Shown here: positions 41,401 to 63,931 of the stretch, one piece after another
Layout of the letters: every line of letters starts with the position of its first letter
Numbering within the stretch: position 1 is the stretch's first letter
Made by a program: the position numbers and the translations under genes
The notes under the pieces: model-generated
What the model was told of the DNA's origin: nothing
Seen by the model: the letters and a program-made list of their open reading frames with translations, nothing else
Databases searched by the model: none
From: Eledone cirrhosa
Lineage: Eukaryota
Direction of reading: 5' to 3'
Assembly: GCA_964016885.1 (NCBI GenBank)
Contig: OZ024743.1
Coordinates: 178,808,001-178,872,000, forward strand
DNA: 64,000 nt

Positions 41401-41537
41401 CAATTTGAAGTGTACTTACAAATATATCAGTGAGCGCAACCTGGCAGTCACCAACATTAAGCCAGCTAGTAATATCATATTTGTTAAAACAGATCTAATA
41501 CAATAACGGACATATAATTCAAGTAAACTAGAGGATA

Positions 41538-41733
41538 TAATAATAATTGTTTCTACTTTTGGCACAAGTCCAGCAATTAATTCCAGTGTATTACTGGTAC
41601 GTTATTTGATCGACCCTGTAAGGATGAAAGGCAGAGTTAACCTTGGTGTGATTTGAACTCAGATCACAAAGGGAGGTAGCTCTATGCTCCAACGCACGGT
41701 GTCCGACCCTCTACCGATACTGCCAATCCACCA
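41538..41733 (-). mobile_element. tRNA-derived SINE (family S), copy 1
   Basis: Minus strand reads ggtggattggcagtatcggtagagggtcggac (A-box-like), gagttcaaatc (B box), ctttcatccttacagggtcgatc...gtaccag central domain, and a tail cttgtgccaaaagtagaaacaattattatt. Confidence 0.85.
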
Positions 41734-41755
41734 CCACCAACACCACCAGAAGATA

Positions 41756-41951
41756 TAATAATAATTGTTTCTACTTTTGGCACAAGGCCAGCAATTACCA
41801 GTGTATTACTGGTACTTTATTTTATCGACCTCGTACGGATGGAAAGGCAAAATTAACCTCGGCCGGATTTGAACTCAGAATGGCAAGGGCCGTAACTCTA
41901 TACGTCAAAGCATGGCGTCCGACCCTCTACGGATACTGCCAATCCACCGCC
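41756..41951 (-). mobile_element. tRNA-derived SINE (family S), copy 2, full length
   Basis: Same layout as copy 1: head ggcggtggattggcagtatccgtagag, B box gagttcaaatcc, (ATT)n tail. Confidence 0.88.
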
Positions 41952-41962
41952 ATATATAGATA

Positions 41963-42062
41963 TAATAATAATTGTTTTTCCTCTGGCACAAGGCCAGCAA
42001 TTATTGTACATTACTGGTACTTTATTTTATCGACCCCGTAAGGATGAAAGTTAAAGTTAACC
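41963..42062 (-). mobile_element. SINE family S, 5'-truncated copy 3
   Basis: Only the tail and central domain are present (ggcacaaggccagcaatt...atcgaccccgtaaggatgaaag on the + strand). Confidence 0.8.
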
Positions 42063-42066
42063 TAGA

Positions 42067-42180
42067 ATAATTGTTTCTACTATTTGGCACGATGCCAGCA
42101 ATTACCCAGTACATTACTGGTACTTTTATTTTATCGACCCCGTAAGGATGAAAGGCAAAGTTAACCTCGGCCGGATTTAA
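42067..42180 (-). mobile_element. SINE family S, 5'-truncated copy 4
   Basis: Tail plus central domain, ending at the B-box region (cggccggatttaa on the + strand). Confidence 0.8.
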
Positions 42181-42598: not shown

Positions 42599-42644
<46 letters not shown>

Positions 42645-42648
<4 letters not shown>

Positions 42649-43959
42649 AAGAATTAGTATATTTACTAACATATATATACAGATGCATACCTATGCCAGC
42701 AAATATATAGGTTTTGTCTTAGTAACTTTGTGGTTCAATGCATGGGGATGCAGAACAATAATATGAGAGACGTAAAATAAGAAAAATATAAAAATTAACT
42801 TACTAAAATTTCACTCCAACTAATTAGTTTCTGAAAGGGAATAAACGTAGTTTCCGAAGAAACGTACGGAGAAGCATTTCGTCATCAGGAAAGTCTATTC
42901 TCAGCTAAGTTTCCAGGCAATACGTGGACACAGGGAACTTATACAAAAATAATTCAGTGGATGGAAAAAAGCAAAGCGTGGTCTAAGTCCCAAGCGATTG
43001 AAAAAAATCACTGCCTACTGCGTCGGTGGCAAATTCAAAAGAATCAATCACGTGACATCGAGGTCAATCAGTGAAGAGTGGTTTGTTAAGAAGACAGCTG
43101 CCGGACTGTTACTATGAACTATAGTAGCAGTTTTGGCCAATTTTGGCTCGACAAAATAATTTGGAGATAATTATAAAGAATTAGTATATTTGCTAACATA
43201 TATATACAGATGCTTACCTATGCCAGCAAATATATAGGTTTTGTCTTAGTAACTTTGTGGTTCAATGCATGGGGATGCAGAACAATAATATGAGAGACGT
43301 AAAAGACTTCCCTGATGACGAAAGGCTTCTCCGTACGTTTCTTCGGAAACTACATTTATTCCCTTTCAGAAACTAAGTAGTTGGAGTGAAATTTTAGTAA
43401 GTTAATTTTTATAATTTTCTTATTTTACGTCTCTCATATTATTGTTCTGCATCCCCATGCATTGAACCACAAAGTTACTAAGACAAAACCTATATATTTG
43501 CTGGCATAGGTAAGCATCTGTATATATATGTTAGTAAATATACTAATTCTTTATAATTATCTCCAAATTATTTTGTCGAGCCAAAATTGGCCAAAACTGC
43601 TACTATAGTTCATAGTAACAGTCCGGCTGCTGTCTTCTTAACAAACCACTCTTCACTGATTGACCTCGATGTCACGTGATTGATTCTTTTGAATTTGCCA
43701 CCGACGCAGTAGGCAGTGATTTTTTTCAATGGCTTGGGACTTAGTCCACGCTTTGCTTTTTTCCATCCACTGAATTATTTTTGTATAAGTTCCCTGTGTC
43801 CACGTATTGCCTGGAAACTTAGCTGAGAATAGACTTCCCTGATGACGAAAGGCTTTCCGTACGTTTCTTCGGAAACTACGTTTATTCCCATTCAGAAATT
43901 AATTAGTTGGAGTGACATTTTAGTAAGTAAGTTAATTTTTATAATTTTCTTATTTTACG

Positions 43960-43968
<9 letters not shown>
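42645..43968. mobile_element. Family A: palindromic Penelope-pLTR/retrozyme-like insertion of a 527-bp unit (two ~1.25-mer arms, head-to-head)
   Basis: tataaagaattagtat recurs at 42645 and 43172, and gacttccctgatgacg at 43305 and 43832 (period 527 in both arms). 43305-43968 is the reverse complement of the same unit in a different circular permutation. It carries CTGATGA...GAAAC and is flanked by (TA)n on both sides. Confidence 0.8.

Positions 43969-44034
<66 letters not shown>
43969..44034. repeat. (TA)n microsatellite
   Basis: Pure TA run. Confidence 0.95.
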
Positions 44035-44037
<3 letters not shown>

Positions 44038-44078
44038 CTTCCATATGCTGTACTGATTGTGTTGTTATTTCTGTTTAC

Positions 44079-44121
<43 letters not shown>

Positions 44122-44218: not shown

Positions 44219-44499
44219 CTAAAGTCTGTCTTTAGCCAGAAGGCTCATTTGGCCGGTGCTTATTCCGGTTTCATGCCGTGAAGCGACTGAGAGTACAAGA
44301 CTCCCCCCTCGACAGGACGCCAGTCCATTGCAGGGTTAAACCTCCAGCTATTGCTGGTACTCATTTTCAGCTGAGTAAACTGGAGCAACGTGAAATAAAG
44401 TGTCTTGCTCAAGAAAACAACACATCACCCGGTCCGAGAATTGAACTCACAAAATTTCGATTGCAAGACCAATGCTCTAACCACTAAGCCTTGCGCCTT

Positions 44500-44500
<1 letters not shown>
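44219..44500 (-). mobile_element. tRNA-derived SINE of a second family (CORE/Meta-like central domain)
   Basis: Minus strand: gaaggcgcaaggcttagtggttagagc (A box), gagttcaattc (B box), then cttgagcaagacactttatttcacgttgctccagtttactcagctgaaaatgagtacc. The domain name is from recall, not from alignment. Confidence 0.82.
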
Positions 44501-44540
<40 letters not shown>

Positions 44541-44735
44541 TCCGAAGGAAAGGCAAAGGAAAAAGAGTGCTCAATAACATCTCTGTCTGATGACCAATCC
44601 AGGCGTATATTAATATTGTCTGGAATCCAAAAACCTTTGGTAATGGAGTAGTTATATTTTGTGTTGTTCACAACGTTAACCTAATATATCCCTTCCATAT
44701 ACTGTACCGATTGTGTTTTTATTTCTGTTCACTTT

Positions 44736-44738
<3 letters not shown>
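44541..44738 (+). mobile_element. Family C HHR-bearing non-coding repeat, copy 1
   Basis: About 200-bp segment with an inverted copy at 50063-50240 and a short 3' fragment at 44035-44085; bounded by (TA)n. Confidence 0.72.
44581..44648 (+). ncRNA. Type I hammerhead ribozyme motif (family C), G12 mutated
   Basis: Stem I ctctgt/atggag, core CTGATGA (44587-44593), stem II tccagg/tctgga, AAAA in place of GAAA, stem III acc-ttt-ggt, cleavage triplet GTA. Confidence 0.65.
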
Positions 44739-44792
<54 letters not shown>

Positions 44793-45690: not shown

Positions 45691-46278
45691 CTCATGGTCG
45701 GGTCGTTGGCGACTAAACTGGCAACCCCACCAAGGTTTCTTGGTGAGGAGGGTGACTTTGGACATCCTGCAGGACTAAAAACAAAACCTGTCAAAGGGCA
45801 AAGGAGCTCTTAAGAGTCAATGGCCATCCAAAATCACCGGGAGAGATGACCCCTTTAGCCTTAGTCAAGGCAGAATTCTAGGAGAAGGAAAACTCTGATA
45901 TAACACCTGCAACCCTGATGGTATCCAATGATGTTGACTTGTTCTTCTTTTTGGTAAATAGCATCTTGGTTAAGAGAGTGGGACTGGCTTTGTGCAGTGC
46001 CTTTGCTCACTATAAAAGCTTCACGGCACAGGCATTGCTTTATATCTGGAGATCTCTCTGCACTTGTCCTCACATGGGCCCAGCACTATGTGTCAATAAT
46101 TGTCCTACCATGGGCCTAGCACTATGTGTCAATGATTGTCACAGGTGTAGTGTTTGTACCAGAGGTTTCAAGTCGCTGGCTGGACTAAAAAGTCACACTC
46201 GTTCAGCGCTTCGGTAGGGGTTATCCTACATGGATGTAAAGTAGTGGCCGTACTCGAAAACGAGTTGGCAGCCACCAT
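45691..46278 (+). mobile_element. Non-autonomous RTE-like element (bipartite 5'UTR plus 3' end), copy 1
   Basis: The 3' part encodes a zinc-finger remnant [19 protein letters not shown] as at RTE ORF C-termini. It ends in the hairpin actcg-aaaa-cgagt followed by a (TA)n tail. A second copy lies at 48758-49352. Confidence 0.65.
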
Positions 46279-49352
<3,074 letters not shown>

Positions 49353-49454: not shown

Positions 49455-49553
<99 letters not shown>

Positions 49554-49705
49554 GAGCTCTGAAATAGCAATATATATATGGATGTATATATAATGTATTT
49601 TGCAATACACTTTATGCTTAATTAAAAGCATTTTGAAGACCGTATGCTATTGTTTTAGAGTAGTGACAAATTCACTTACTTTAATCTCAGCAAACAGGGG
49701 AGATA

Positions 49706-49751
49706 AGCCGACAAGGGCCTTGTTTCGCTTTTCTTGAAGCTTATCAAGGCT
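49706..49751 (-). ncRNA. Type I hammerhead ribozyme, family D (U3-A8 core)
   Basis: agcc-TTGATAA-gctt-caagaa-aagc-GAAA-caag-gcc-cttGTC-ggct. Confidence 0.85.
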
Positions 49752-49862
49752 AACTACCCCTCCTGTCTACTGAGATTACTGATGTTATATTCTTATAGAA
49801 TTCTAGTAAATAATCAGGAGCTGATTATACATCAGTAATCTCAGTAGACAGGGGGGGTAGTT

Positions 49863-49908
49863 AGCCTTGATAAGCTTCAACAAAAGCGAAACAAGGCCCT
49901 TGTCGGCT
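49863..49908 (+). ncRNA. Type I hammerhead ribozyme, family D (U3-A8 core), predicted cleavage after C49904
   Basis: agcc-TTGATAA-gctt-caacaa-aagc-GAAA-caag-gcc-cttGTC-ggct; all three stems pair. Confidence 0.87.
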
Positions 49909-50034
49909 TATCTCCCCTGTTTGCTGAGATTAAAGTAAGTGAATTTGTCACTACTCTAAAACAATAGCATACGGTCTTCAAAATGCTTTTAATTAAGCAT
50001 AAAGTGTATTGCAAAATACATTGTATATACATCC

Positions 50035-50062
<28 letters not shown>

Positions 50063-50068
<6 letters not shown>

Positions 50069-50240
50069 TCGGTACAGTATATGGAAGGGATATATTAGGT
50101 TAACGTTGTTAACAACACAAAATATAACTACTCCATTACCAAAGGATTCTGGATTCCAGACAATATTAATATACGCCTGGATTGGTCATCAGACAGAGAT
50201 GTTATTAAGCACTCTTTTTCCTTTGCATTTCCTTCGGAAG
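50063..50240 (-). mobile_element. Family C HHR-bearing repeat, copy 2 (HHR at 50131-50198)
   Basis: Reverse complement of 44541-44716. The core reads CTGATGA...GAAT-cctttgGTA, so A15.1 is mutated. Confidence 0.72.
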
Positions 50241-50276: not shown

Positions 50277-50316
<40 letters not shown>

Positions 50317-50443
50317 GGATGTATATATAATGTATTTTGCAATACACTTTATGCTTAAATAAAAGCATTTTGAAGACCGTAAGCTATTGTTTTAAAGTAG
50401 TGACAAATTCACTCACTTTGATCTCAGAAAACAGGGGAGATAA

Positions 50444-50485
50444 GCCGACAAGACTTGTTTCGCTTTGGTTGAAGCTTATCAAGGC
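50444..50485 (-). ncRNA. Type I hammerhead ribozyme, family D
   Basis: gcc-TTGATAA-gctt-caacca-aagc-GAAA-caa-gtc-ttGTC-ggc. Confidence 0.82.
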
Positions 50486-50759
50486 CAACTACCCCACCTG
50501 TCTACTGAGATCATTGATGTTATATTCTTATAGAAATCTAGTAAATATTCAGGAGCTGATTATGCAGAGCGGTTGTTGGTCAGGCAGAAATTAAAAATTA
50601 GAATTGGAGCTCTGAAATAGCAATATATATATGGATGTATATATAATGTATTTTGCAATACACTTTATGCTTAATTAAAAGCATTTTGAAGACCGTAAGC
50701 TATTGTTTTAAAGTAGTGACAAATTCACTCACTTTGATCTCAGCAAACAGGGGAGATAA

Positions 50760-50801
50760 GCCGACAAGACTTGTTTTGCTTTGGTTGAAGCTTATCAAGG
50801 C
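50760..50801 (-). ncRNA. Family D hammerhead, probably inactive (G12 to A)
   Basis: The plus strand reads ttgttttgct where the other copies read ttgtttcgct, so the core has AAAA instead of GAAA. Confidence 0.75.
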
Positions 50802-50841
50802 CAATATATACATATACCTACATATATTGGCCAATATATTG

Positions 50842-50883
50842 GCCTTGATAAGCTTCAACCAAAGCGAAACAAGTCTTGTCGGC
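50842..50883 (+). ncRNA. Type I hammerhead ribozyme, family D, predicted cleavage after C50880
   Basis: gcc-TTGATAA-gctt-caacca-aagc-GAAA-caa-gtc-ttGTC-ggc. Confidence 0.82.
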
Positions 50884-51039
50884 TTATCTCCCCTGTTTGC
50901 TGAGATCAAAGTGAGTGAATTTGTCACTATTTTAAAACAATAGCTTACGGTCTTCAAAATGCTTTTAATTAAGCATAAAGTGTATTGCAAAATACATTAT
51001 ATATACATCCATATATATATTGCTGTTTCAGAGCTCCAA

Positions 51040-51090
<51 letters not shown>

Positions 51091-51897: not shown

Positions 51898-52398
51898 TTA
51901 ATTGTGTTACTAAACTTCTTAATATATAGGTCATTATGTAAGCAGGACAATTTTGTAAGCAAAATAAATCACTCCACTTCGTATCCATCTTTATGGGATC
52001 ACATACGACGGAATATATGTATAATAATCAATATGAAAACAAGTTTTCCATAATACACTATATTAGATAATTTGTTTTTATGCCTCTTTTAGTAGTGTCA
52101 GCTGTTATGACGCAATGGTACCATTGCATTATTCTTGTTATGTGTGACACGACGTCTTCAGGCAGTCTATATTATGTAATGCAGATTGATGATATGGAAA
52201 CAGCCTGATGTTCGATGTTGCCAAATTAGGATTCTTGTTCTATGTGGGGACGGGAGCTTGAACTAGCAACAAGAAGTACGTAATGATATCATTGCATAAT
52301 AACAGCTAGCTGACACTGCAGAAATACGTATAGCAGAGAATTACCTAATAAAAAGAATTATGGAAACTTGTCTGCTTATACATTATTATTATTATTAT

Positions 52399-52595
52399 GG
52401 GCGGTGGATTGGCAGTAACGGTAGAGGGTCGGACGCCATTCTTTGACGCATAGAGTTACGGCTCTTGCCATTCTGAGTTCAAATCCCGCCGAGTTAACTT
52501 TGCCTTTCATCCTTTCGAGGTCGATAAAATAAAGTACCAGTAATACACTCGGTGATTGCTGGCCTTGTGCCAAAAGAAGAACAATTTTTTATTAT
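52399..52595 (+). mobile_element. tRNA-derived SINE family S, copy 5
   Basis: gggcggtggattggcagtaacggtagag...gagttcaaatcccgcc...ctttcatcctttcgaggtcgataaaataaagtaccag...ccttgtgccaaaagaagaac; preceded by (ATT)n. Confidence 0.9.
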
Positions 52596-52809
52596 GGGCG
52601 GTGAATTGGCAGTGTCGGTAGAGAGTCGGACGCCATGCTTTGCAGCATAGTTACATCTCTCTACGGTCTGAGTTCAAATCCCGCCGAGATTAACTTTGCC
52701 TTTCATCCTTACGGGGTCGATAAAATAAAGTACCATAATGTACTTGGTAATTGCTGGCCTTGTGCCAAAAGTAGAAACAATTATTATTATTATTATTATT
52801 ATTATTATA
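52596..52809 (+). mobile_element. tRNA-derived SINE family S, copy 6, with (ATT)n tail
   Basis: Head-to-tail with copy 5; tail attattatt at 52780-52809. Confidence 0.9.
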
Positions 52810-52952
52810 GTTGCATCTATCTTGCTTTATGTTCATACGAGTTATCACCAAGTCACAACCAGTGACCTCAAGAGACAACAAGGTCCGCTATGTTCAAGAA
52901 AGAACATACATACACACACATGCATCTTTAGGTGTTTAGACATGTGATGTAC

Positions 52953-53471
52953 TTATATTGACAGAATCTTCCTTAGTATATAGGCAGTTCCCATTAGTAC
53001 TATCTTTTGTATTTCTCCTATACGCGGGTTTCCTGGGATTTGCGATAAGTAATCATTAGACACCTTAGGTATCATTCCTAGAGCGCCTACAACCACTGGT
53101 ATTGTTTTAGTTCTCAATGTCCACATTTTCCCAATTTCTATCTCCAGGTCCTTATACTTGCTCAATTTTTCAAATGTTTTTATAGATACATTCTTGTCTA
53201 TTGGAACGGACATATCAATCAGCAGGCATACCCTCTTTTTAAAGTCCTTCAGTATTATATCAGTTCTATTTGCCTCTATTTTTCGGTCTGTTTGGATGCT
53301 AAAGTTCCACAAGATTGAGATGTGATCTTTTTCAAGTATGGGAGGTGGTTGATGCTCCAACCAATTCTTTTGATGGGTCAGGTCAAAATGCTTACACATT
53401 ATCCAATGTATGTATTGTGCAGCTCTGTCATAGCTGTTTAGGTATTCGGTTGGAGCTATAGGACTGCACAT
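52953..53471 (-). pseudogene. Restriction-like endonuclease C-terminus of R4/Dong element 1
   Basis: IHW..C, W..H.P, LWNF.IQTD..I.ANRTDI, LID.SVP.D, EK.SKY..L, IPVVVGALG. Confidence 0.88.
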
Positions 53472-53826
53472 AGAAATTATATGATCAATGGTCTCTGGGT
53501 TTTCTACACGGCATAATGGGTTGCATCCATTTTTTTATTATGTTGGCTTGGTAATTTTTTGTTGGCAGACACTGATCTTGTGCTGATATAATCAGTCTTC
53601 AGTCACCGATTTCAATCCAGAGGATGCCAACCACTGATGGGTTAAAGTTTTGTCAACATCAGGATTGTTAGCTCTCTCTGGGTATTTTCCATACAGAGGC
53701 TTTTCTTGCCATTTCTTAGCCAGTTTCTGTAGCAGTTCTTTCTTTGCAGTTACTTTTACCTGCTTTGCCTTTTCTGTGTTTTTCATTTCAGCAGTAAATG
53801 GAACTTCTGAGATTTGTAATCCATTA

Positions 53827-55208
53827 CTATATCTTTCTCAATCTTTTGCTGCTGTCGTGTTTCAAAACGAGTTTGATCATCCAATCATGTGATTCCCTTA
53901 GATATGTAGATAATCCAATTGTTGCAGTTTTCAACGCAATCTCTAACTGGATTAACCCACGTCCTCCTTCTTTCCTAGGGAGATATATTCTATCTGTATC
54001 TGCCTTAGGGTGATGCATTCTGTGCATGGTTAAGAATTTTCTAATTTTTGTATCGAGCCTTCGGATCTCTGTGCTTGACCAGTTGATGACATTGTAACTG
54101 TAGGTTACTACTAGTATGGCAAGCGTGTTTATGGCATCGATCCTATTCCTTGCATTCAATTTCGTTCTTAAGATTGCTCTTACGCTGCGGTAACATTCCT
54201 TCCTTATCTTTTCTCTCATTGTCGAGTGCTTGATTCCGTCTCCTTCACAAACACCTAGATATTTGTAAGTTTCCTCTTGTTCAAGTTCTCTTATCACATT
54301 CCCCCGATCAAGATTAATGTCTGAACTCTTCAGCAGCTTTCCTCTGGTGAACGTTGCTTTAGCGCATTTATCTAGTCCAAACTCCATTTTAATGTCATCA
54401 CTGAACTGCTTCACAGTGGATAATAGCCCTTGCAATTGTTCATCAGTTTTTGCAAATAGTTTCAGGTCATCCATGTAGAACAAGTGATTAATGGTTTTGT
54501 CATAGACTTTATATCCATATTTTGTTTCATTGAGCATTTTACTTAATGGTATAAGTGCGATGCAGAATAAAAGCGGTGATAAAGAGTCACCCTGAAAAAT
54601 TCCACAATTAATATTAATTTCTCCAGCTTCCAGTGATCTTTTTTTCACTATTCAAAAGGAGTGTCGTTTTCCATGTCTTCATACTGAATGACAAGAACCT
54701 CCTCACAACGAGAGATATTTTGAAAATCTCTAAACATTTTTCAATCCAACTGTGTGGCAAACTATCGAATGTTTTTTTTATAATCTATCCAAGCAATTGA
54801 TAGATTTTTGTGTGTATTATGACAATCTTCCAGTATCATTTTGTTAACCAAAAGCTGATCTTTACAGCCATATGAGCCTCGTTTACACCCTTTCTGCTCA
54901 ATGGGAAATAGGTCATTTGTTATCAGGTGGTCATATGTATATTCAGTTAGGACTGATGTTAAAATTGTATACATTGTTGTCAAGCAAGTTATTGGTCTGT
55001 AATTTTTTGGATTGTTTGTCTCATCATTATTCGGAAGCAGGGATGTAATGCCGTTAACTAGCCATGATGGTATCTTTTCTGGCTCCTTATCTATTGCATT
55101 GTAAAGTTGGGCTAACAGCTCATGAGACTCTGCGAAGGCATTTATCCAAAAATTTGGTATTTTGTCTTTTCCTGGGGATTTCCATTTGCTGTTTTTTCTA
55201 AGAACCAA
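53827..55208 (-). pseudogene. Reverse transcriptase domain of R4/Dong element 1 (frameshifted)
   Basis: ORF fragments 54762-55208 and 53827-54648 with the YMDD catalytic motif. Confidence 0.9.
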
Positions 55209-56340
55209 ACGTAACTGTTAAACTGTTATATTTTACCATGTTTGCTCCTCAAGGTGAGCTGTATCTTTGATTTGTCTGTCTATCCATGGGGCATGTATAT
55301 TATGAACCTTTTCTTCGGCCCAGATCTTTTCCCAGAATTCTTGCACTTCCTCCTTGGGTGGTATTGATTTAGCAGTTATTGTTGATTTGCCAATTTTTCT
55401 GTAGAAATTTATTTGGTTGTTTTTGAACATATTATTATCCTTATAGAATCTAGATCGTTTTTCAAAGCTCCTTATACGAGAGCTTTGGCCGACACTTTTT
55501 GCTTGATTATTTCTATCAGCATGCCTACGTCACTTGTTGGTTTTATACTGTATTTTCTTTTCAATTTTCTAAGTTTAGTTTGTTTAACATGTTCACCTAC
55601 TTTGTAGTTTGTTAACATTTCTATGTCAGATCGGAGAAGGTTTATTTGGCGATTGATGTTCTCTTGCCAAGTAGATTTCTTGTGGGAATTCCTTTGTTTT
55701 TTCATCTTCACTACACATTAGTGATTGATGACTTTAGCCGATGCATAATAGAGATTATTTAGATCAGTAATGTTTCGTTTGTTTGTGATGATAATGTATT
55801 TGAGAATTATGTTAGTTTTGTGTATTATCTTTTGGTTCTGTTTGGAGTTCTGGATGTTAGGGAGAGTGTCTCGTTCCCCCATGTCAGATTCTTTCATTTT
55901 CATCCATTCGATCATAATTTCATCCTTCGATTTGGCAACTTCATTCTCATTCATTTCTTTATCATTTATGATCTCATTGTTTTCATTTTGAGTTTCATTT
56001 TGAGCATGCACTCCCTCAACTTTTTCGATCCTTTCTTTAATTTGTACTGCTGTCAGTGATTCCGCTCCAACCCTGGGATTCGAAGTGTTACAATTTACCT
56101 CGTTTTCACTGACACAGTTTCATTTTCCCTTCGCTGACTTTGTGCTAATAGCTTGATCTGATCAATTTCAATATCAGTTAGTAACTTTTTTTTAACAATA
56201 TTTCTTTGTATATTGGCTAGTTTGTTACTGTCAACATAGCCTCTGTTTTCGGGATGTTTCTTTTTACAGTTGATATATGTCTGTTCTGTATTCGATCTAT
56301 TTGATGGGTAGTACATGGCAGTGTAGAAAGCCTCAGGGAC

Positions 56341-56828
56341 TTCTTTATCTGTCTGGTGGCCATGGCGAAAGAGATAGTATGGTGGATACCTTTGAAAGGG
56401 CTGAAGACGAGCACTAACCTCTTTGGTGATGCCCTGATTAACTTTTTCAAATTTCAGTTGAAAAGGAAAATCAAGGTAGAGAGGGAAGTGCTCTCTTCCC
56501 AGCATTTTGTTGAAAGATGGGTGAGAGAAGCAAGTATGACTCGAGTGGATGAGCCTACTCTGAGTATGTGTCTGTAAATTAAAGGTGGAAAACTGGGAGA
56601 GGGCACTTGCCCTGGTGGTCAGGGGCACTGTGGCCTTTTACTGGGCTTTCTCCACAAATGTCCCTCGGAAGTCTCCCTCCTATTGGGGAATTTTTCATTG
56701 TTATTTTTTTGTTAAATCCTCTGTTTTTGTTTTTTTTGCACGCAGAAATGCCCATTTGTACCGTCCTGTATTGTCCTGTACTGTCCTTAATGTCTACTTT
56801 ATGTAAACCTTTGAGGTTAATAAAGAAA

Positions 56829-56861: not shown

Positions 56862-59800
56862 TTGTTCTTTGATGTTAGTTAACTGGAAAGTTTGTTAAAA
56901 TGAATATCAAGCCACTACCTGCAACCTCAGATATTCAGGACGTATCGGAGGATTCTTGCTGTTCCCAGCACGTATGCCTTTTGAAGTGTTCCAAAAAGCG
57001 GCGCGGGGCCAATTTTCTTCAACCATCCCTGGAGACTTTTTGAGATAGTACCTAGTGCACCTAAGACAATCGGGACGACTCTGACTTCATGGCAGTTCCA
57101 AATCCTTTTTACCTCCCACTTTAAGTCCTGGTATCGATTAATTTTCTCCCTCTCCCTCTCTTGCACTCTCGTGTCGAATGGGCAGGCTACATCCACAACC
57201 AGGCACGATCGTTTTTCCTTGTCCAAAACCACCAGGTCAGGTCTATTGTGTTCCAGTTTCTTGTCCGTCTGTATCTTAAAATCCCACAGCACCTTCACCT
57301 GATCGTTTTCTATCACCGACTCTGGCTTATGCTCATACCACTTCTCAGAATGTGGTAAATTGTTTACTTTGCATAGGTGCCAGTGGATCATGCTGCCAAT
57401 CATATCATGCCTCAAGCCTTTATAGTGACTCTGGGCTAGGTGTTTACACTTGGATACAATGTGAGCCACAGTCTCCTCTCTCTCTCCACAGATCCTGCAC
57501 AGTGGGCTAGCCTCCTCCTTGTAAATATGGTGTTTCAACCACTTCGTTTTGAGGGCCTGCTCTTGCGCAGCCATTAGCATTCCTTCTGTAGCCTTTTTAA
57601 GGTCTCCTCTTTTCAACCAGTTCCATGTCTGTGGATCTCTGAATTCAGTTTTCTCAAAGAAGGTACTATGAAGGGATTTTTCATGAAGGTTGCACCTCCT
57701 CCTTGTTGTTATTTCCTCCTTGGACATCCCCTGGTCTATTGTCCTCTCCTTAAGTACAATTCTGAGCATTGGCTCCCTACTGTCAGTCACGTATTTGTGC
57801 AGGTTGTTTTTCTCCATCTGAACACAGTCCCCTATGCTGATAAGACCTCTTCCACCTTCAGATCTCTTGTGGAACATGTAGATAGTCAATAGCTTCCTAG
57901 TCTTCCTATCCATTTCTTTTTGTTCAGTAACATTCCATTTCAGAATTCCCGCACTGTACCTAATAATAGACAAAGCTCTGGAATTCACTGCACTTATGGC
58001 ATTCCTACTGTTCAGATGTGATTTTAATACGCTCCTTACTCTCCTAATGTACACAAATCTTATCGATTCTTTCATTTTTTTTGTTCTTGATATCATGTGC
58101 CTCCAGAACACGTTAATATTTGAATCCTTCCTCAGTGTCAATTTCCTTTATCCCCTCACCTGTTGGTACCTGGATTCCGTTGCTTCTGCTCAATTTACAT
58201 CTCTTCATCACTAGGACTCCACATTTATTAATACCAAATTGCACACATATATCATTGCTGAAAAATACGGCCAGTGTCAACAAATACATCCAACTCCTTC
58301 TCACTCTTCCCGAAGAGTTTAAGATCGTCCATGAAGAGGAGGTGGTTGATGGTAAGCTCTCCCTTTCCCAACTTGTATCCTGCTCTCACTTTTCGCAGTA
58401 TAATGGTCAGGGGCATCAGGGCAAGGACAAACAACAGGGGGGGGGGACAAACTATCTCCCTGGAAGATACCTCTCTTGATCTTCACGCCTCCCAAGGATT
58501 CTCCACCCGATGTTAACTCTGTTTTGCAGGACTTCATACTTTTGCTCAACCACTGTCTGATGTTATCTGCCACCTTGAAGATCTCTAGGCTTTTGGTTAT
58601 CCAAGAATGGGGTCCCATGTCGAATGCCTTTTTGTAATCTATCCATCCCATGGCAAGACCAGTGTGTCGCCTCTTGCAATTCCTCATTATCAATAAGTAA
58701 CTGGTCTTTTGTACCACGGGACTTCTTTCGGCATCCTTTCTGTTCGTCCGGTAACAAGTTGTTTATATGGAGGTGATGGTAGATTTCCTCAGACACAATG
58801 CTTGTAAAACAGTTTCCACATTACGGACAGACATGTGATAGGTCTATAGTTGGTAACATCATTACCCTTGATTCGGTCTTTCATTACCAGAACTGTGGTA
58901 CCTTTTGTCAACCACTCTGGTACCTCACCCGACATCAATCAGTCATTGAACATGGTTGTCAGTTTCGGGTGGTGTGATGTTATATTTTTTATCCAATACC
59001 CATGCACACCATCTGGGCCTGGTGATTTCCAGTTGGTTAGTTTTTTGGCCTGCCCTTTATTAGTTTCAACTGTGATACTCAAATCAGTTTGTTGGTGTGT
59101 TTGTTGGTGTGCTCCCATATTCCTCTCCAGAATGTCTTAGTCTGTTCCGCCACAGGGATCAAGTCGTTGCCTCATTCTTTCCCTTCAAGCTGTCCAAACA
59201 ACATCTTCTGGTTGTTGTCAAACATGCGGTTCTGTCTATACTGACTTACTCTGCTCTCATACCGCCTAATCTTTGCACTCTTTGCTACGATTCATTGCTT
59301 CAGTTCCTCTATGATGATATTTAGCTTTGTACTTTATTTTTGTACTTTATTTCCAATCTATTTTTAGTGTCTATGTTTTGTAGTATCCCATTCAGTAGGG
59401 ACTCAAGCTTTCCAACGGCATTTCTCAATTCCTTGATTTGACCATTCAGTCGTTTCTTCCACCAAGGTTCTGATCTTTCTTGTTTGTTGTTTCCTCTCGT
59501 TTTTATACCAAGTAATTTCCCCACCGCATTTGCTGTTGCTTTGAGGATATTGTTGCATTCCTCGCCTCAAGGTATGGGATGACTTTGTTTACCATAGCTG
59601 TTGTTTCTTTTAACTTTTTCCTGTCTACAAATCTTAGGTTCATAGGTTTCCCACTATCATTGTTCATTTCTTCTACCACTAAGTTTATGATATCAACCAA
59701 ATCTTGTCCTAGCCCGCCAGCATTCATTTCCACAATCTTTGTTCCAGATGTTATTTATTTCAGCATTCAGATCATTGTCTGCCTCGGATGCTTCCTCTGT

Positions 59801-60350
59801 TCTCTCAACCTCTTCACCTTCATTTCTCACTGGCTCGTTTGTCTGGCCTACTCCACTCCCCATTTCTAATCTAATCTCTCTGCTCAGTTCCTCCATTTCC
59901 AACTCGCTTATCCATCCATTAGTTCATATTACCCGAGCCTGCCCGGCCAATTTTTGTTCATCTAATTTAAATAGACCAATCTCGTTCCAGATGTTATGCA
60001 TCCGTTTCCTATAGCCTTTTTCCTTGGGGTTACTCTTCAGGTAACATTGCATAACAGTTCTTTTCAATTCTTTCGTCCAATTGGTTCTTGTCCCTTTCCT
60101 TCTTCTTCTTCCTCCAACACCAGCAGTATTTGGATGACAGCCAGGTCCCTGCTGCTGGGCCATGGGGCACTTGCTGGGTGAGAGTCTGTCACATGACGTT
60201 CCAGTCTCCTCTTCACCGTTATTCGAACTGTTTAGGTTCGACATTTAAACACTCATATCGAGGATTGGTGAATGTATGGTTACATAACCACCGGTGATTT
60301 CATCATCCCCAGTGATTTCATCACCCCCGGTGATTTTAGCGTGGCACCAT
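56862..60350 (-). mobile_element. Decayed near-full-length R4/Dong-type non-LTR retrotransposon 2 (different subfamily)
   Basis: ATG at 60244; RTNWTKE..VMQCY..SNP..KGYRKRM..IW; EPWWKKRL; EQKGCRK.SRGTKDQL; WIDYKKAFD; GIFQGDSLSP; LFMDDLKLF; CRICGEREETVAHIVSKC; RPDLVV..VVDVACP..EKINRY; stop at 56927. Confidence 0.93.
56927..58141 (-). pseudogene. RT thumb, CCHC finger and restriction-like endonuclease of R4/Dong element 2
   Basis: 404-aa open fragment with GGRGL, the CCHC knuckle and a PD..D..K nuclease motif. Confidence 0.9.
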
Positions 60351-62406: not shown

Positions 62407-63735
62407 GTGTGTCTGTGTGTCTTGTGTATTAGATTTAAATAGTCAGATTTTTTTTTTAAGATTCTAACAAGCTTATGGAGACTGCGATATTTAGAATATC
62501 ACGCAACGTCATAGCATCAACCGGCTGCATAACAATTATTTACGAATTTCTAATGGAATTCCTCATTGACAAAAAGGGTCAAGAGACGTGTGTTAAAAAG
62601 GTTACTGACGAAAACCGTAACAATACTTCTGGTTAGAGCAAGACACGAAAAGAGCAGTGAACTATTGAAACTTCCAGCTCACATCTGGCACCCCTATTGA
62701 ATATGCTCTTAAATTTATTGATCTCTGATTTCTTAATATTTCGTCTTTTTTTCTTTTCCAGATTCTATTTTCTTGATTTTTTTTTTGGTTCGTTAGTTTA
62801 TACTTTTCATTTTTTGGTTTTCATGTCTTTGTATTTTTTTTTTCTTTTCATTATTTTCCATTAGTCAGTACGACCTAGGTAAAGAATGTACATACATAGA
62901 CTGGTTTAGTGCTACATATATATATAATATGTGTAATCTCAGTGTGGACATGCCAAATATCATGCGTCGTGACATGCTGGGCCTTAATTGGTATTAGAAT
63001 TCTATTGTTAAGACAGTATTTAGTGTTGTTACTGGCAATGTTCGTTTCGATGCTGTTGTTGTTGCAGATGATGCTGTTGAAGTTGATGCTGGTGTTGGTG
63101 ATGTGGTTGTGATAGTGTCTGTTATAGCAGTGGTAAGGTTGCTGATTGTTGATTTATTCAACCTACAATTCAGCTACAGTATTTCTTGCTACGTTCATAT
63201 CTTACAACGGTATTTCAATGTTATCGATCTGCAAGTATAACCTTTTACTTTGACCTATGCATTAAATAGTTATATGAAGAAAAATTTCTAGTTTACAAAC
63301 ATGATACATTAGCAAACCTGAATATACAACTAGAAAAGTATATGTGTAAACATGTGTGTATGTGTGTGTGTGTGCGTGTGTAAATTGGGAAAAGAATATG
63401 CAGACCTTAAGAGATTGTGTTTAATAATAAAGATGTCTAATACAGGTTCAAGGCCTTCAATTTGTGGGGAAGGGAATCTTGATGGTATATCTGTTATTAA
63501 ATGCTGTATATGTGGTGTGGTAAATTATATCACTAGCAGTAGTTAATGGGTAGATTATTCCATCGACCGCAGATGGATAAAGGGACATTTCAGATTGTGG
63601 TACAGATTTGAAATCAAACCGCAATGGGACAGGGCAAATACTGCTAAATATTTATCCAACAGACAAAGTACTCAGTAAATCCACCGCTGTAATCATAACA
63701 ACAACAATTGTGATAATAAAAATGATAATTATAAT

Positions 63736-63931
63736 GATAATAATAATTGTTTCTACTTTTGGCACAAGGCCAGCAATTACCCAGTGCATTGCTGGTACTT
63801 TATTTTATCGACCCCTTATGCATGAAAGGCAAAGTTAACCTCGACAGGATTTGAACTCAGGATGGCAAGGGGCGTAACTCCATGCATCAAATCATGGCGT
63901 CCGACTCTCTACCGATACTGCCAATCCACCG
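63736..63931 (-). mobile_element. tRNA-derived SINE family S, copy 7
   Basis: taataataattgtttctacttttggcacaaggccagc...atttgaactcag...ctgccaatccaccg on the + strand. Confidence 0.88.

Follow-up and report, generated by a model that had tools for sequence, protein, structure and literature searches.

A head-to-head pair of permuted repeats between (TA)n tracts, probably one insertion of a Penelope-type non-LTR retrozyme

How does a non-coding repeat come to lie as two opposite-strand copies, each longer than one unit and each starting at a different point of the unit, joined 5' end to 5' end between two (TA)n tracts? This question is raised by positions 42645-43968 of the window, by which we mean the whole 64,000-nucleotide stretch that was analysed. 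We consider it probable that the locus represents a single insertion event of a non-autonomous element of Penelope type (a non-LTR retrozyme), copied from an uncleaved RNA of more than unit length by an enzyme acting in trans. The assignment to this class, made from the insertion anatomy and the predicted ribozyme features, is very likely correct; that the template was a linear multimer is only slightly favoured.

Geometry of the locus and its (TA)n target

For the repeat, here called family A, position 1 of the unit was set at 43305. The features of the locus are as follows.

42605-42644, (TA)n stretch, probably the left half of the target (TRF row 42605-42648, period 2)
42645-43304, minus strand, left arm, unit 119-527 then 1-251, 660 bp, 1.25 units, 3' end at 42645 on TATA
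42645-42777, minus strand, 3' copy of the left-arm terminal redundancy, 133 bp, unit 119-251
43172-43304, minus strand, 5' copy of the left-arm terminal redundancy
43304-43305, 5' ends of the two arms abut head to head, without filler and sharing one base at most
43305-43968, plus strand, right arm, unit 1-527 then 1-134/135, 664 bp, 1.26 units, 3' end on ATAT
43969-44035, (TA)n stretch, probably the right half of the target (TRF row 43966-44035)

Both arms share a 527-bp period in self-BLAST and in alignment, and in a self-comparison of the window family A was found at this locus only, matching nothing but itself. The earlier note had proposed two differently permuted 1.25-mers of a 527-bp unit, on opposite strands and joined without a spacer, each with about 135 bp of terminal redundancy. 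All of this was confirmed. The two copies of the left-arm redundancy (133 bp) differ by 2 substitutions, while those of the right arm (134 or 135 bp, from unit position 1) differ by 4 substitutions and two indels (a 1-nt deletion and a 4-nt insertion). The start of the right arm had been placed 7 nt before CTGATGA; the location is right but the precision is 7 or 8 nt, because the A at 43304 is compatible with either arm.

The description of the locus as a 1.3-kb palindrome holds only in part. Identity about the centre is 184/660 without an offset and 405/409 with an offset of 118 nt, and the locus is therefore an inverted repeat with unit 1-118 as its unpaired centre and no mirror palindrome. 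This bears on the possibility of an assembly or read artefact (a fold-back chimera). Assemblies are known to be at risk of error where duplicates lie inverted between microsatellites, and PMC8557442 describes such structures as troublesome for them. A fold-back would nevertheless mirror exactly, while here the permutations of the arms differ and 15 differences separate their segments; we rejected this explanation on the mirror identity and regard it as highly improbable.

The 15 variable sites are spread over all four segments, with 2 private differences in the first right unit, 5 in the second right unit, 1 and 4 in the left segments and 3 that could not be assigned. This spread is compatible with a single event followed by decay. 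The differences are denser in unit 1-118 than elsewhere (10 in 354 nt versus 5 in 970, Fisher p 0.001, with the boundary chosen post hoc). Such clustering would be unexpected from simple decay of one template and counts against our main reading. The arm lengths, 660 and 664 bp, are nearly equal, as chance would give in about 2% of cases. Full head-to-tail dimers of family A are absent from the window; the right arm has two hammerhead motifs one unit apart but spans only 1.26 units.

The unit is non-coding, with a GC content of 0.36. Its longest stop-to-stop frame, taken on the circular unit, is an antisense frame of 79 aa that had no Pfam match, and no homologue was found at 43-139 aa. An open reading frame for reverse transcriptase and GIY-YIG, the mark of an autonomous Penelope-like element, was not present in the unit, which holds no long frame. 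A 31-nt motif of the unit had 0 exact matches in the bacterial and archaeal genomes scanned.

Both 3' ends of family A face outward into (TA)n through the TATA and ATAT matches, a 4-mer that just 17 of the 527 unit positions offer. The two ends, at unit 251 and 135, lie 116 nt apart at this one locus, where a Penelope tail would have 30-40 nt, and this mismatch counts against our main reading. A long inverted repeat flanked by TA would also suit a fold-back DNA transposon or MITE whose terminal inverted repeats are long. The outer ends are, however, not reverse complements of each other (unit 251 versus 135), and each arm is internally redundant in direct orientation and contains a hammerhead motif. 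This explanation was rejected on the outer ends and is hardly conceivable.

What the earlier note overlooked is the Penelope context of the inverted 5' copy and the (TA)n target. In the account given in PMC8557442, partial tandems of Penelope form pseudo-LTRs, an inverted 5'-truncated copy lies adjacent, a tail is found on one side and insertion is biased to (TA)n. Compared to the Penelope-like elements described there (EN+ clades Penelope/Poseidon, Neptune, Nematis and Hydra; Craig et al. 2021), family A shares the pseudo-LTR partial tandem, the inverted copy at the 5' end, the (TA)n target, the lack of a discernible target duplication and a type I hammerhead (predicted here) in the repeat. 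It differs in having no RT or GIY-YIG frame, in that both arms exceed one unit, and in the spacing of its 3' ends, 116 nt as compared to a tail of 30-40 nt. The layout of family A is thus the standard insertion anatomy of a class already known.

A second family with the same layout

The same head-to-head arrangement occurs in an unrelated repeat about 6 kb away, which we call family B. It has a 316-bp unit with a predicted type I hammerhead, including covariation of the U3-A8 core, and shows no similarity to family A beyond short AT-rich matches. Two loci are present, both head-to-head and both in (TA)n.

49551-50044, family B locus 1, arms unit 242-201 and 285-182
about 50307-51046, family B locus 2, one arm of 1.58 units running from unit 1 to 182, the other arm unit 1-208, AT-rich filler of 34 nt

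The recurrence of this layout at both loci (2/2) of an unrelated family supports our main reading. At each of them one arm is 3'-longer, by 19 or 26 nt, and this one-sided extension may be likened to the Penelope 'tail'. Alternating TA of at least 4 bases stands at the 3' end of four of the six arms in families A and B together. The predicted family B ribozyme is cleaner than that of family A. Rfam HH9 matched it with E values of 0.004 and 0.015, below gathering level, and its circular fold has a z of -5.4.

Two further repeats lie in the same part of the window. Family C consists of two copies of about 570 bp (45691-46257 and 48765-49300) that are 89% identical and in inverted orientation, with 2.5 kb of (TA)n/(TATG)n between them; the hammerhead descriptor used below found nothing in them. 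Family E is a repeat of about 190 bp (44540-44740; 50057-50239, opposite strand; and a fragment at 44030-44082) located between (CA)n and (TA)n. It has CTGATGA followed by a hairpin, with no GAAA, and is possibly a decayed or variant hammerhead element.

A predicted type I hammerhead with two registers

The family A unit is predicted to carry a type I hammerhead that would be cut after unit 78. CTGATGA, GAAA and GTT occur in type I order in all three copies.

42813-42894, minus strand, predicted type I hammerhead of the left arm, core starts at 42888, predicted cut after 42818
43306-43387, plus strand, first predicted type I hammerhead of the right arm, core 43312-43318, predicted cut 43382|43383
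43833-43913, plus strand, second predicted type I hammerhead of the right arm, core starts at 43839, predicted cut after 43908
43397-43402, plus strand, GTAAGT, the only GTRAGT of the unit, 15 nt past the predicted cut, possible 5' splice site (a lead only)

The earlier note had closed the core through GAAAC-tac-GTT and had found no canonical stem I. This closure leaves no partner for helix I in any of the three copies. Helix I does form in all three, between unit 4-7 (TTCC, or TTTC in the left copy) and 79-82 (GGAG), once the closure of helix III is shifted downstream to the palindrome ACTAATTAGT, GTT then ending at unit 78. The palindrome is perfect over 10 nt in the left copy. In the first right copy the helices are unit 4-7/79-82 (I), 16-21/58-63 or alternatively 15-18/38-41 (II), and 68-71/74-77 (III); the second right copy is the most diverged of the three. 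Overall, helix I has 4 bp, helix II 4 or 6 bp and helix III 4-5 bp. A type III reading, in which an upstream GGAA pairs with TTCC, was dropped by eye since no NUH triplet precedes it.

The two forms of helix II arise from a duplication of the segment TTC(G/A)GAAACTA, whose copies lie 23 nt apart. The distal register has a 6-bp helix II with the pair G10.1-C11.1, one additional C following A9 and one additional A preceding G12. In the proximal register helix II is CGAA/TTCG, with a C10.1-G11.1 pair, and loop III has 27 nt. The stem II (CGAA/TTCG) proposed earlier is thus a possible one, but one of two. Each register has a single non-canonical feature, namely the extra A between 11.1 and G12 in the distal form and C10.1-G11.1 in the proximal form.

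A descriptor scan of 41100-64000 gave 8 matches, 4 in family A and 4 in family B. The family A matches comprised the proximal register in 3/3 copies and the distal register in one. Shuffled units matched at rates of 0/3000 with helices of 4/4/4 bp, 1/3000 with 4/4/2 and 15/3000 with 3/3/2, the descriptor having been composed after inspection of the sequence and allowing long loops. At gathering level, Rfam had no match in the whole window; with E<=10 on the family A locus it returned 9 matches, which were chance hairpins only and included no hammerhead. The active fold lies above the minimum by 2.5, 8.0 and 8.9 kcal/mol in the three copies for the distal register, and by 7.8-15.3 kcal/mol for the proximal one. 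When the first right-arm unit is folded as a circle, the minimum-energy structure lacks the active fold. In a two-strand cofold of the left copy, the strands were joined via the helix III palindrome and the catalytic core was not built. Among the changes between the three copies, two preserve pairing through G-U, another two disrupt helix II and none is compensatory. The Rfam null result, the non-canonical registers, the cost of the active fold and the lack of compensatory change all count against our main reading.

On the other hand, the distal register resembles the Penelope hammerheads described by Cervera and de la Pena (2014, PMC4209133; Drosophila virilis and Schistosoma mansoni Cercyon) in the extra nucleotide after A9 (between 9 and 10.1), the G10.1-C11.1 pair, the long 6-bp helix II, the short 4-bp helix I and the palindromic helix III. 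The features listed in that paper include ribozyme pairs 100-700 bp apart on opposite strands. Family A differs from these hammerheads in its extra A before G12, in the duplicated TTC(G/A)GAAACTA with its two registers, and in a helix III of 4 bp, which is above the minimal form.

Family A also falls close to the animal non-LTR retrozymes, which are defined and tied to Penelope elements in PMC7229834 (Cervera and de la Pena 2020) and bioRxiv 10.64898/2026.07.22.740005. As characterised in these sources, the shared features are a non-coding unit, one type I hammerhead (predicted here), a GC content below 50% (36% in family A), no evident PBS/PPT-type LTR layout and likely movement by Penelope enzymes. 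In contrast to these elements, family A has no two complete head-to-tail units in the window, is arranged in inverted fashion, exceeds the classical unit size of 150-450 bp and, depending on the register, has a branched helix II region of 50 nt or a loop III of 27 nt. The bioRxiv report gives cleavage in just 1/9 elements tested. More distant relatives are MRC1 and the other non-autonomous Chlamys elements of Chlamydomonas reinhardtii. According to PMC8557442 these are likewise non-autonomous and Penelope-type with pseudo-LTRs and have multicopy insertions; they differ in coming from a green alga, in mostly lacking canonical hammerheads and in their (CA)n and (C)n targets.

The template and the course of insertion

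The earlier note had suggested reverse transcription of a circular or multimeric RNA. Reverse transcription of more than a unit is indeed the best explanation of the arms. It is a published proposal (made in PMC4209133 for Penelope-like elements, with circles as template, and in PMC7229834 for non-LTR retrozymes) and hence not new. The circle is without direct support, as 0/6 arms start at the cut site.

Our main reading, set beside what is observed directly (arm geometry, (TA)n flanks, TATA/ATAT matches, the lack of a coding frame and the family B layout), would involve the following steps. A tandem source array would be transcribed into a multimeric RNA beginning near helix I. Both strands of (TA)n would then be cut by the reverse transcriptase-endonuclease of a Penelope element acting in trans, and each 3' end would prime within the RNA at TA-rich sequence (unit 135 for one, 251 for the other). 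Copying would go inward from each end along the uncleaved RNA, with each cDNA passing one full unit to give the terminal redundancy (pseudo-LTR), and the two cDNA ends would be joined at the centre. In the experiments described in PMC11167929, purified Penelope protein cuts and extends both strands of AT-rich DNA and starts internally on RNA, with no need for ribozyme cleavage; the enzyme starts without target homology in vitro, whereas the family A ends show 4-nt matches, a point against our main reading. PMC13282606 describes 31 recently active Penelope-like families in Octopus vulgaris, and a partner enzyme would therefore be available if the host is an octopus.

The arm starts speak to the form of the template. 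Of the six starts (2 in family A and 4 in family B), none lies at the cut site and three lie at helix I, at a distance of 6-8 nt from the core on its 5' side. This pattern is more in keeping with an uncleaved linear RNA whose 5' end is fixed than with circles. The probability of the helix I starts is about 3e-5 for a pre-named window; two of them are, however, in one locus, and the chance of an offset shared by A and B is about 0.13, so that the clustering is suggestive only. PMC8557442 places a start site inside the pseudo-LTR.

Another possibility, and a rather unlikely one, is that the same element was copied by rolling reverse transcription from a circular monomer formed through hammerhead cleavage and ligation. 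Both arms cross the predicted cut site and are longer than one unit, the heterogeneity is concentrated in the ribozyme region, and the family A unit, folded as a circle, is somewhat more stable than its shuffled versions (z -2.5 and -2.7, from 60 shuffles each). According to PMC7229834, circles of animal retrozymes are abundant. A circle has no end, yet 3/6 arms start near the core, although this is suggestive only, and no ligation scar was seen at the cut site in 3/3 copies. Furthermore, 527 nt exceeds the 150-450 bp given in PMC7229834, though it is inside the 51-972 bp of bioRxiv 10.64898/2026.07.22.740005.

The two arms also fit together in a way that recalls twin priming. The 3' end of the right arm (unit 134-135) overlaps the 5' start of the left arm (119) by 16-17 nt, and the arms thus tile one continuous multimer with a small duplication. 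One RNA of about 1.3 kb (2.5 units) could have been primed at unit 251 and internally at 135, with the first cDNA stopping where the second began; L1 inversions have been proposed to result from such twin priming, according to PMC2246262. We find this doubtful, as such adjacency arises in about 13% of simulations by chance and neither family B locus shows tiling (nearest gaps about 60 and 108 nt). A literature search combining twin priming with Penelope inversions found nothing on topic among the titles and the opening parts of abstracts. The same tiling would be left by a head-to-tail 2.5-mer whose 5' half was inverted later as DNA, and (TA)n tracts are fragile. In that case the breakpoint must hit the 5' boundary of the element, yet the centre is without (TA)n or flank, and two more head-to-head loci, of family B, lie within 8 kb. 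We rejected later inversion on the central junction and consider it very unlikely.

Splicing was considered as a source of the starts at helix I. Family B also has a single GTRAGT, at unit position 73, 31 nt past the cut, and in both of these unrelated units TAG stands just upstream of helix I. The GTRAGT and TAG arrangement may correspond to the Penelope first-exon and intron layout. One GTRAGT within 40 nt was found in 69/5000 shuffles of A and 45/5000 of B, for a pattern noticed post hoc. No spliced junction is present at any arm start and the sequence before TAG is purine-rich; splicing stays a mere lead. It could be speculated that the loci are fossil Penelope integrations in which a 2.5-unit uncleaved RNA beginning at helix I was twin-primed at a (TA)n break, and in which the hammerhead, on a short first exon before a conserved splice donor, switches between its two registers. 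This combined scenario is distinctly improbable; if it were true, arm ends mapped genome-wide would decide between circle and linear multimer in retrozyme mobilisation.

Another family adds little to a known class, and the value of these loci is as material for models. Whether circles or linear multimers are the template from which retrozymes are copied is so far a matter of hypothesis, and the mechanism of tandem and inverted Penelope insertions is a named open problem in PMC8557442. Each small head-to-head permuted locus records two priming and two stop sites, and a genome-wide map of them would test the models. The odd two-register hammerhead, for its part, suits a cheap cleavage assay. We found no such family described in the octopus literature searched; repeat libraries, including the supplements of PMC13282606 and the Zenodo library, may hold it.

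Beyond these repeats, the window consists of animal DNA in which microsatellites, SINEs and decayed LINEs abound. Positions 1-41100 are a 41-kb satellite with units of about 47-48 bp made of CAT/CAA/CAC triplets and an extreme strand skew (GC skew about -0.9). A SINE of about 210 bp on (TAA)n occurs in tandem and dispersed copies at 41530-42170, 52389-52806 and 63721-63931; this SINE, seen for instance at 41530-42170, may resemble an octopus SINE. A tRNA-like SINE head was recognised by eye at 44400-44500 on the minus strand, ending in (CA)n(TA)n. By our reading, the RT frames scanned in the window belong to LINE-type elements. A search with the RT fragment of a neighbouring LINE gave best identities of about 70%, the few named matches being from a killifish and a hydrozoan, and so did not confirm an octopus as the host. 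Two adjacent decayed LINEs (52950-56400 and 56930-60200, minus strand) retain remnants of RT and zf-RVT with (TTA)n flanks, and are presumably R4/Dong-like, with a look that recalls octopus.
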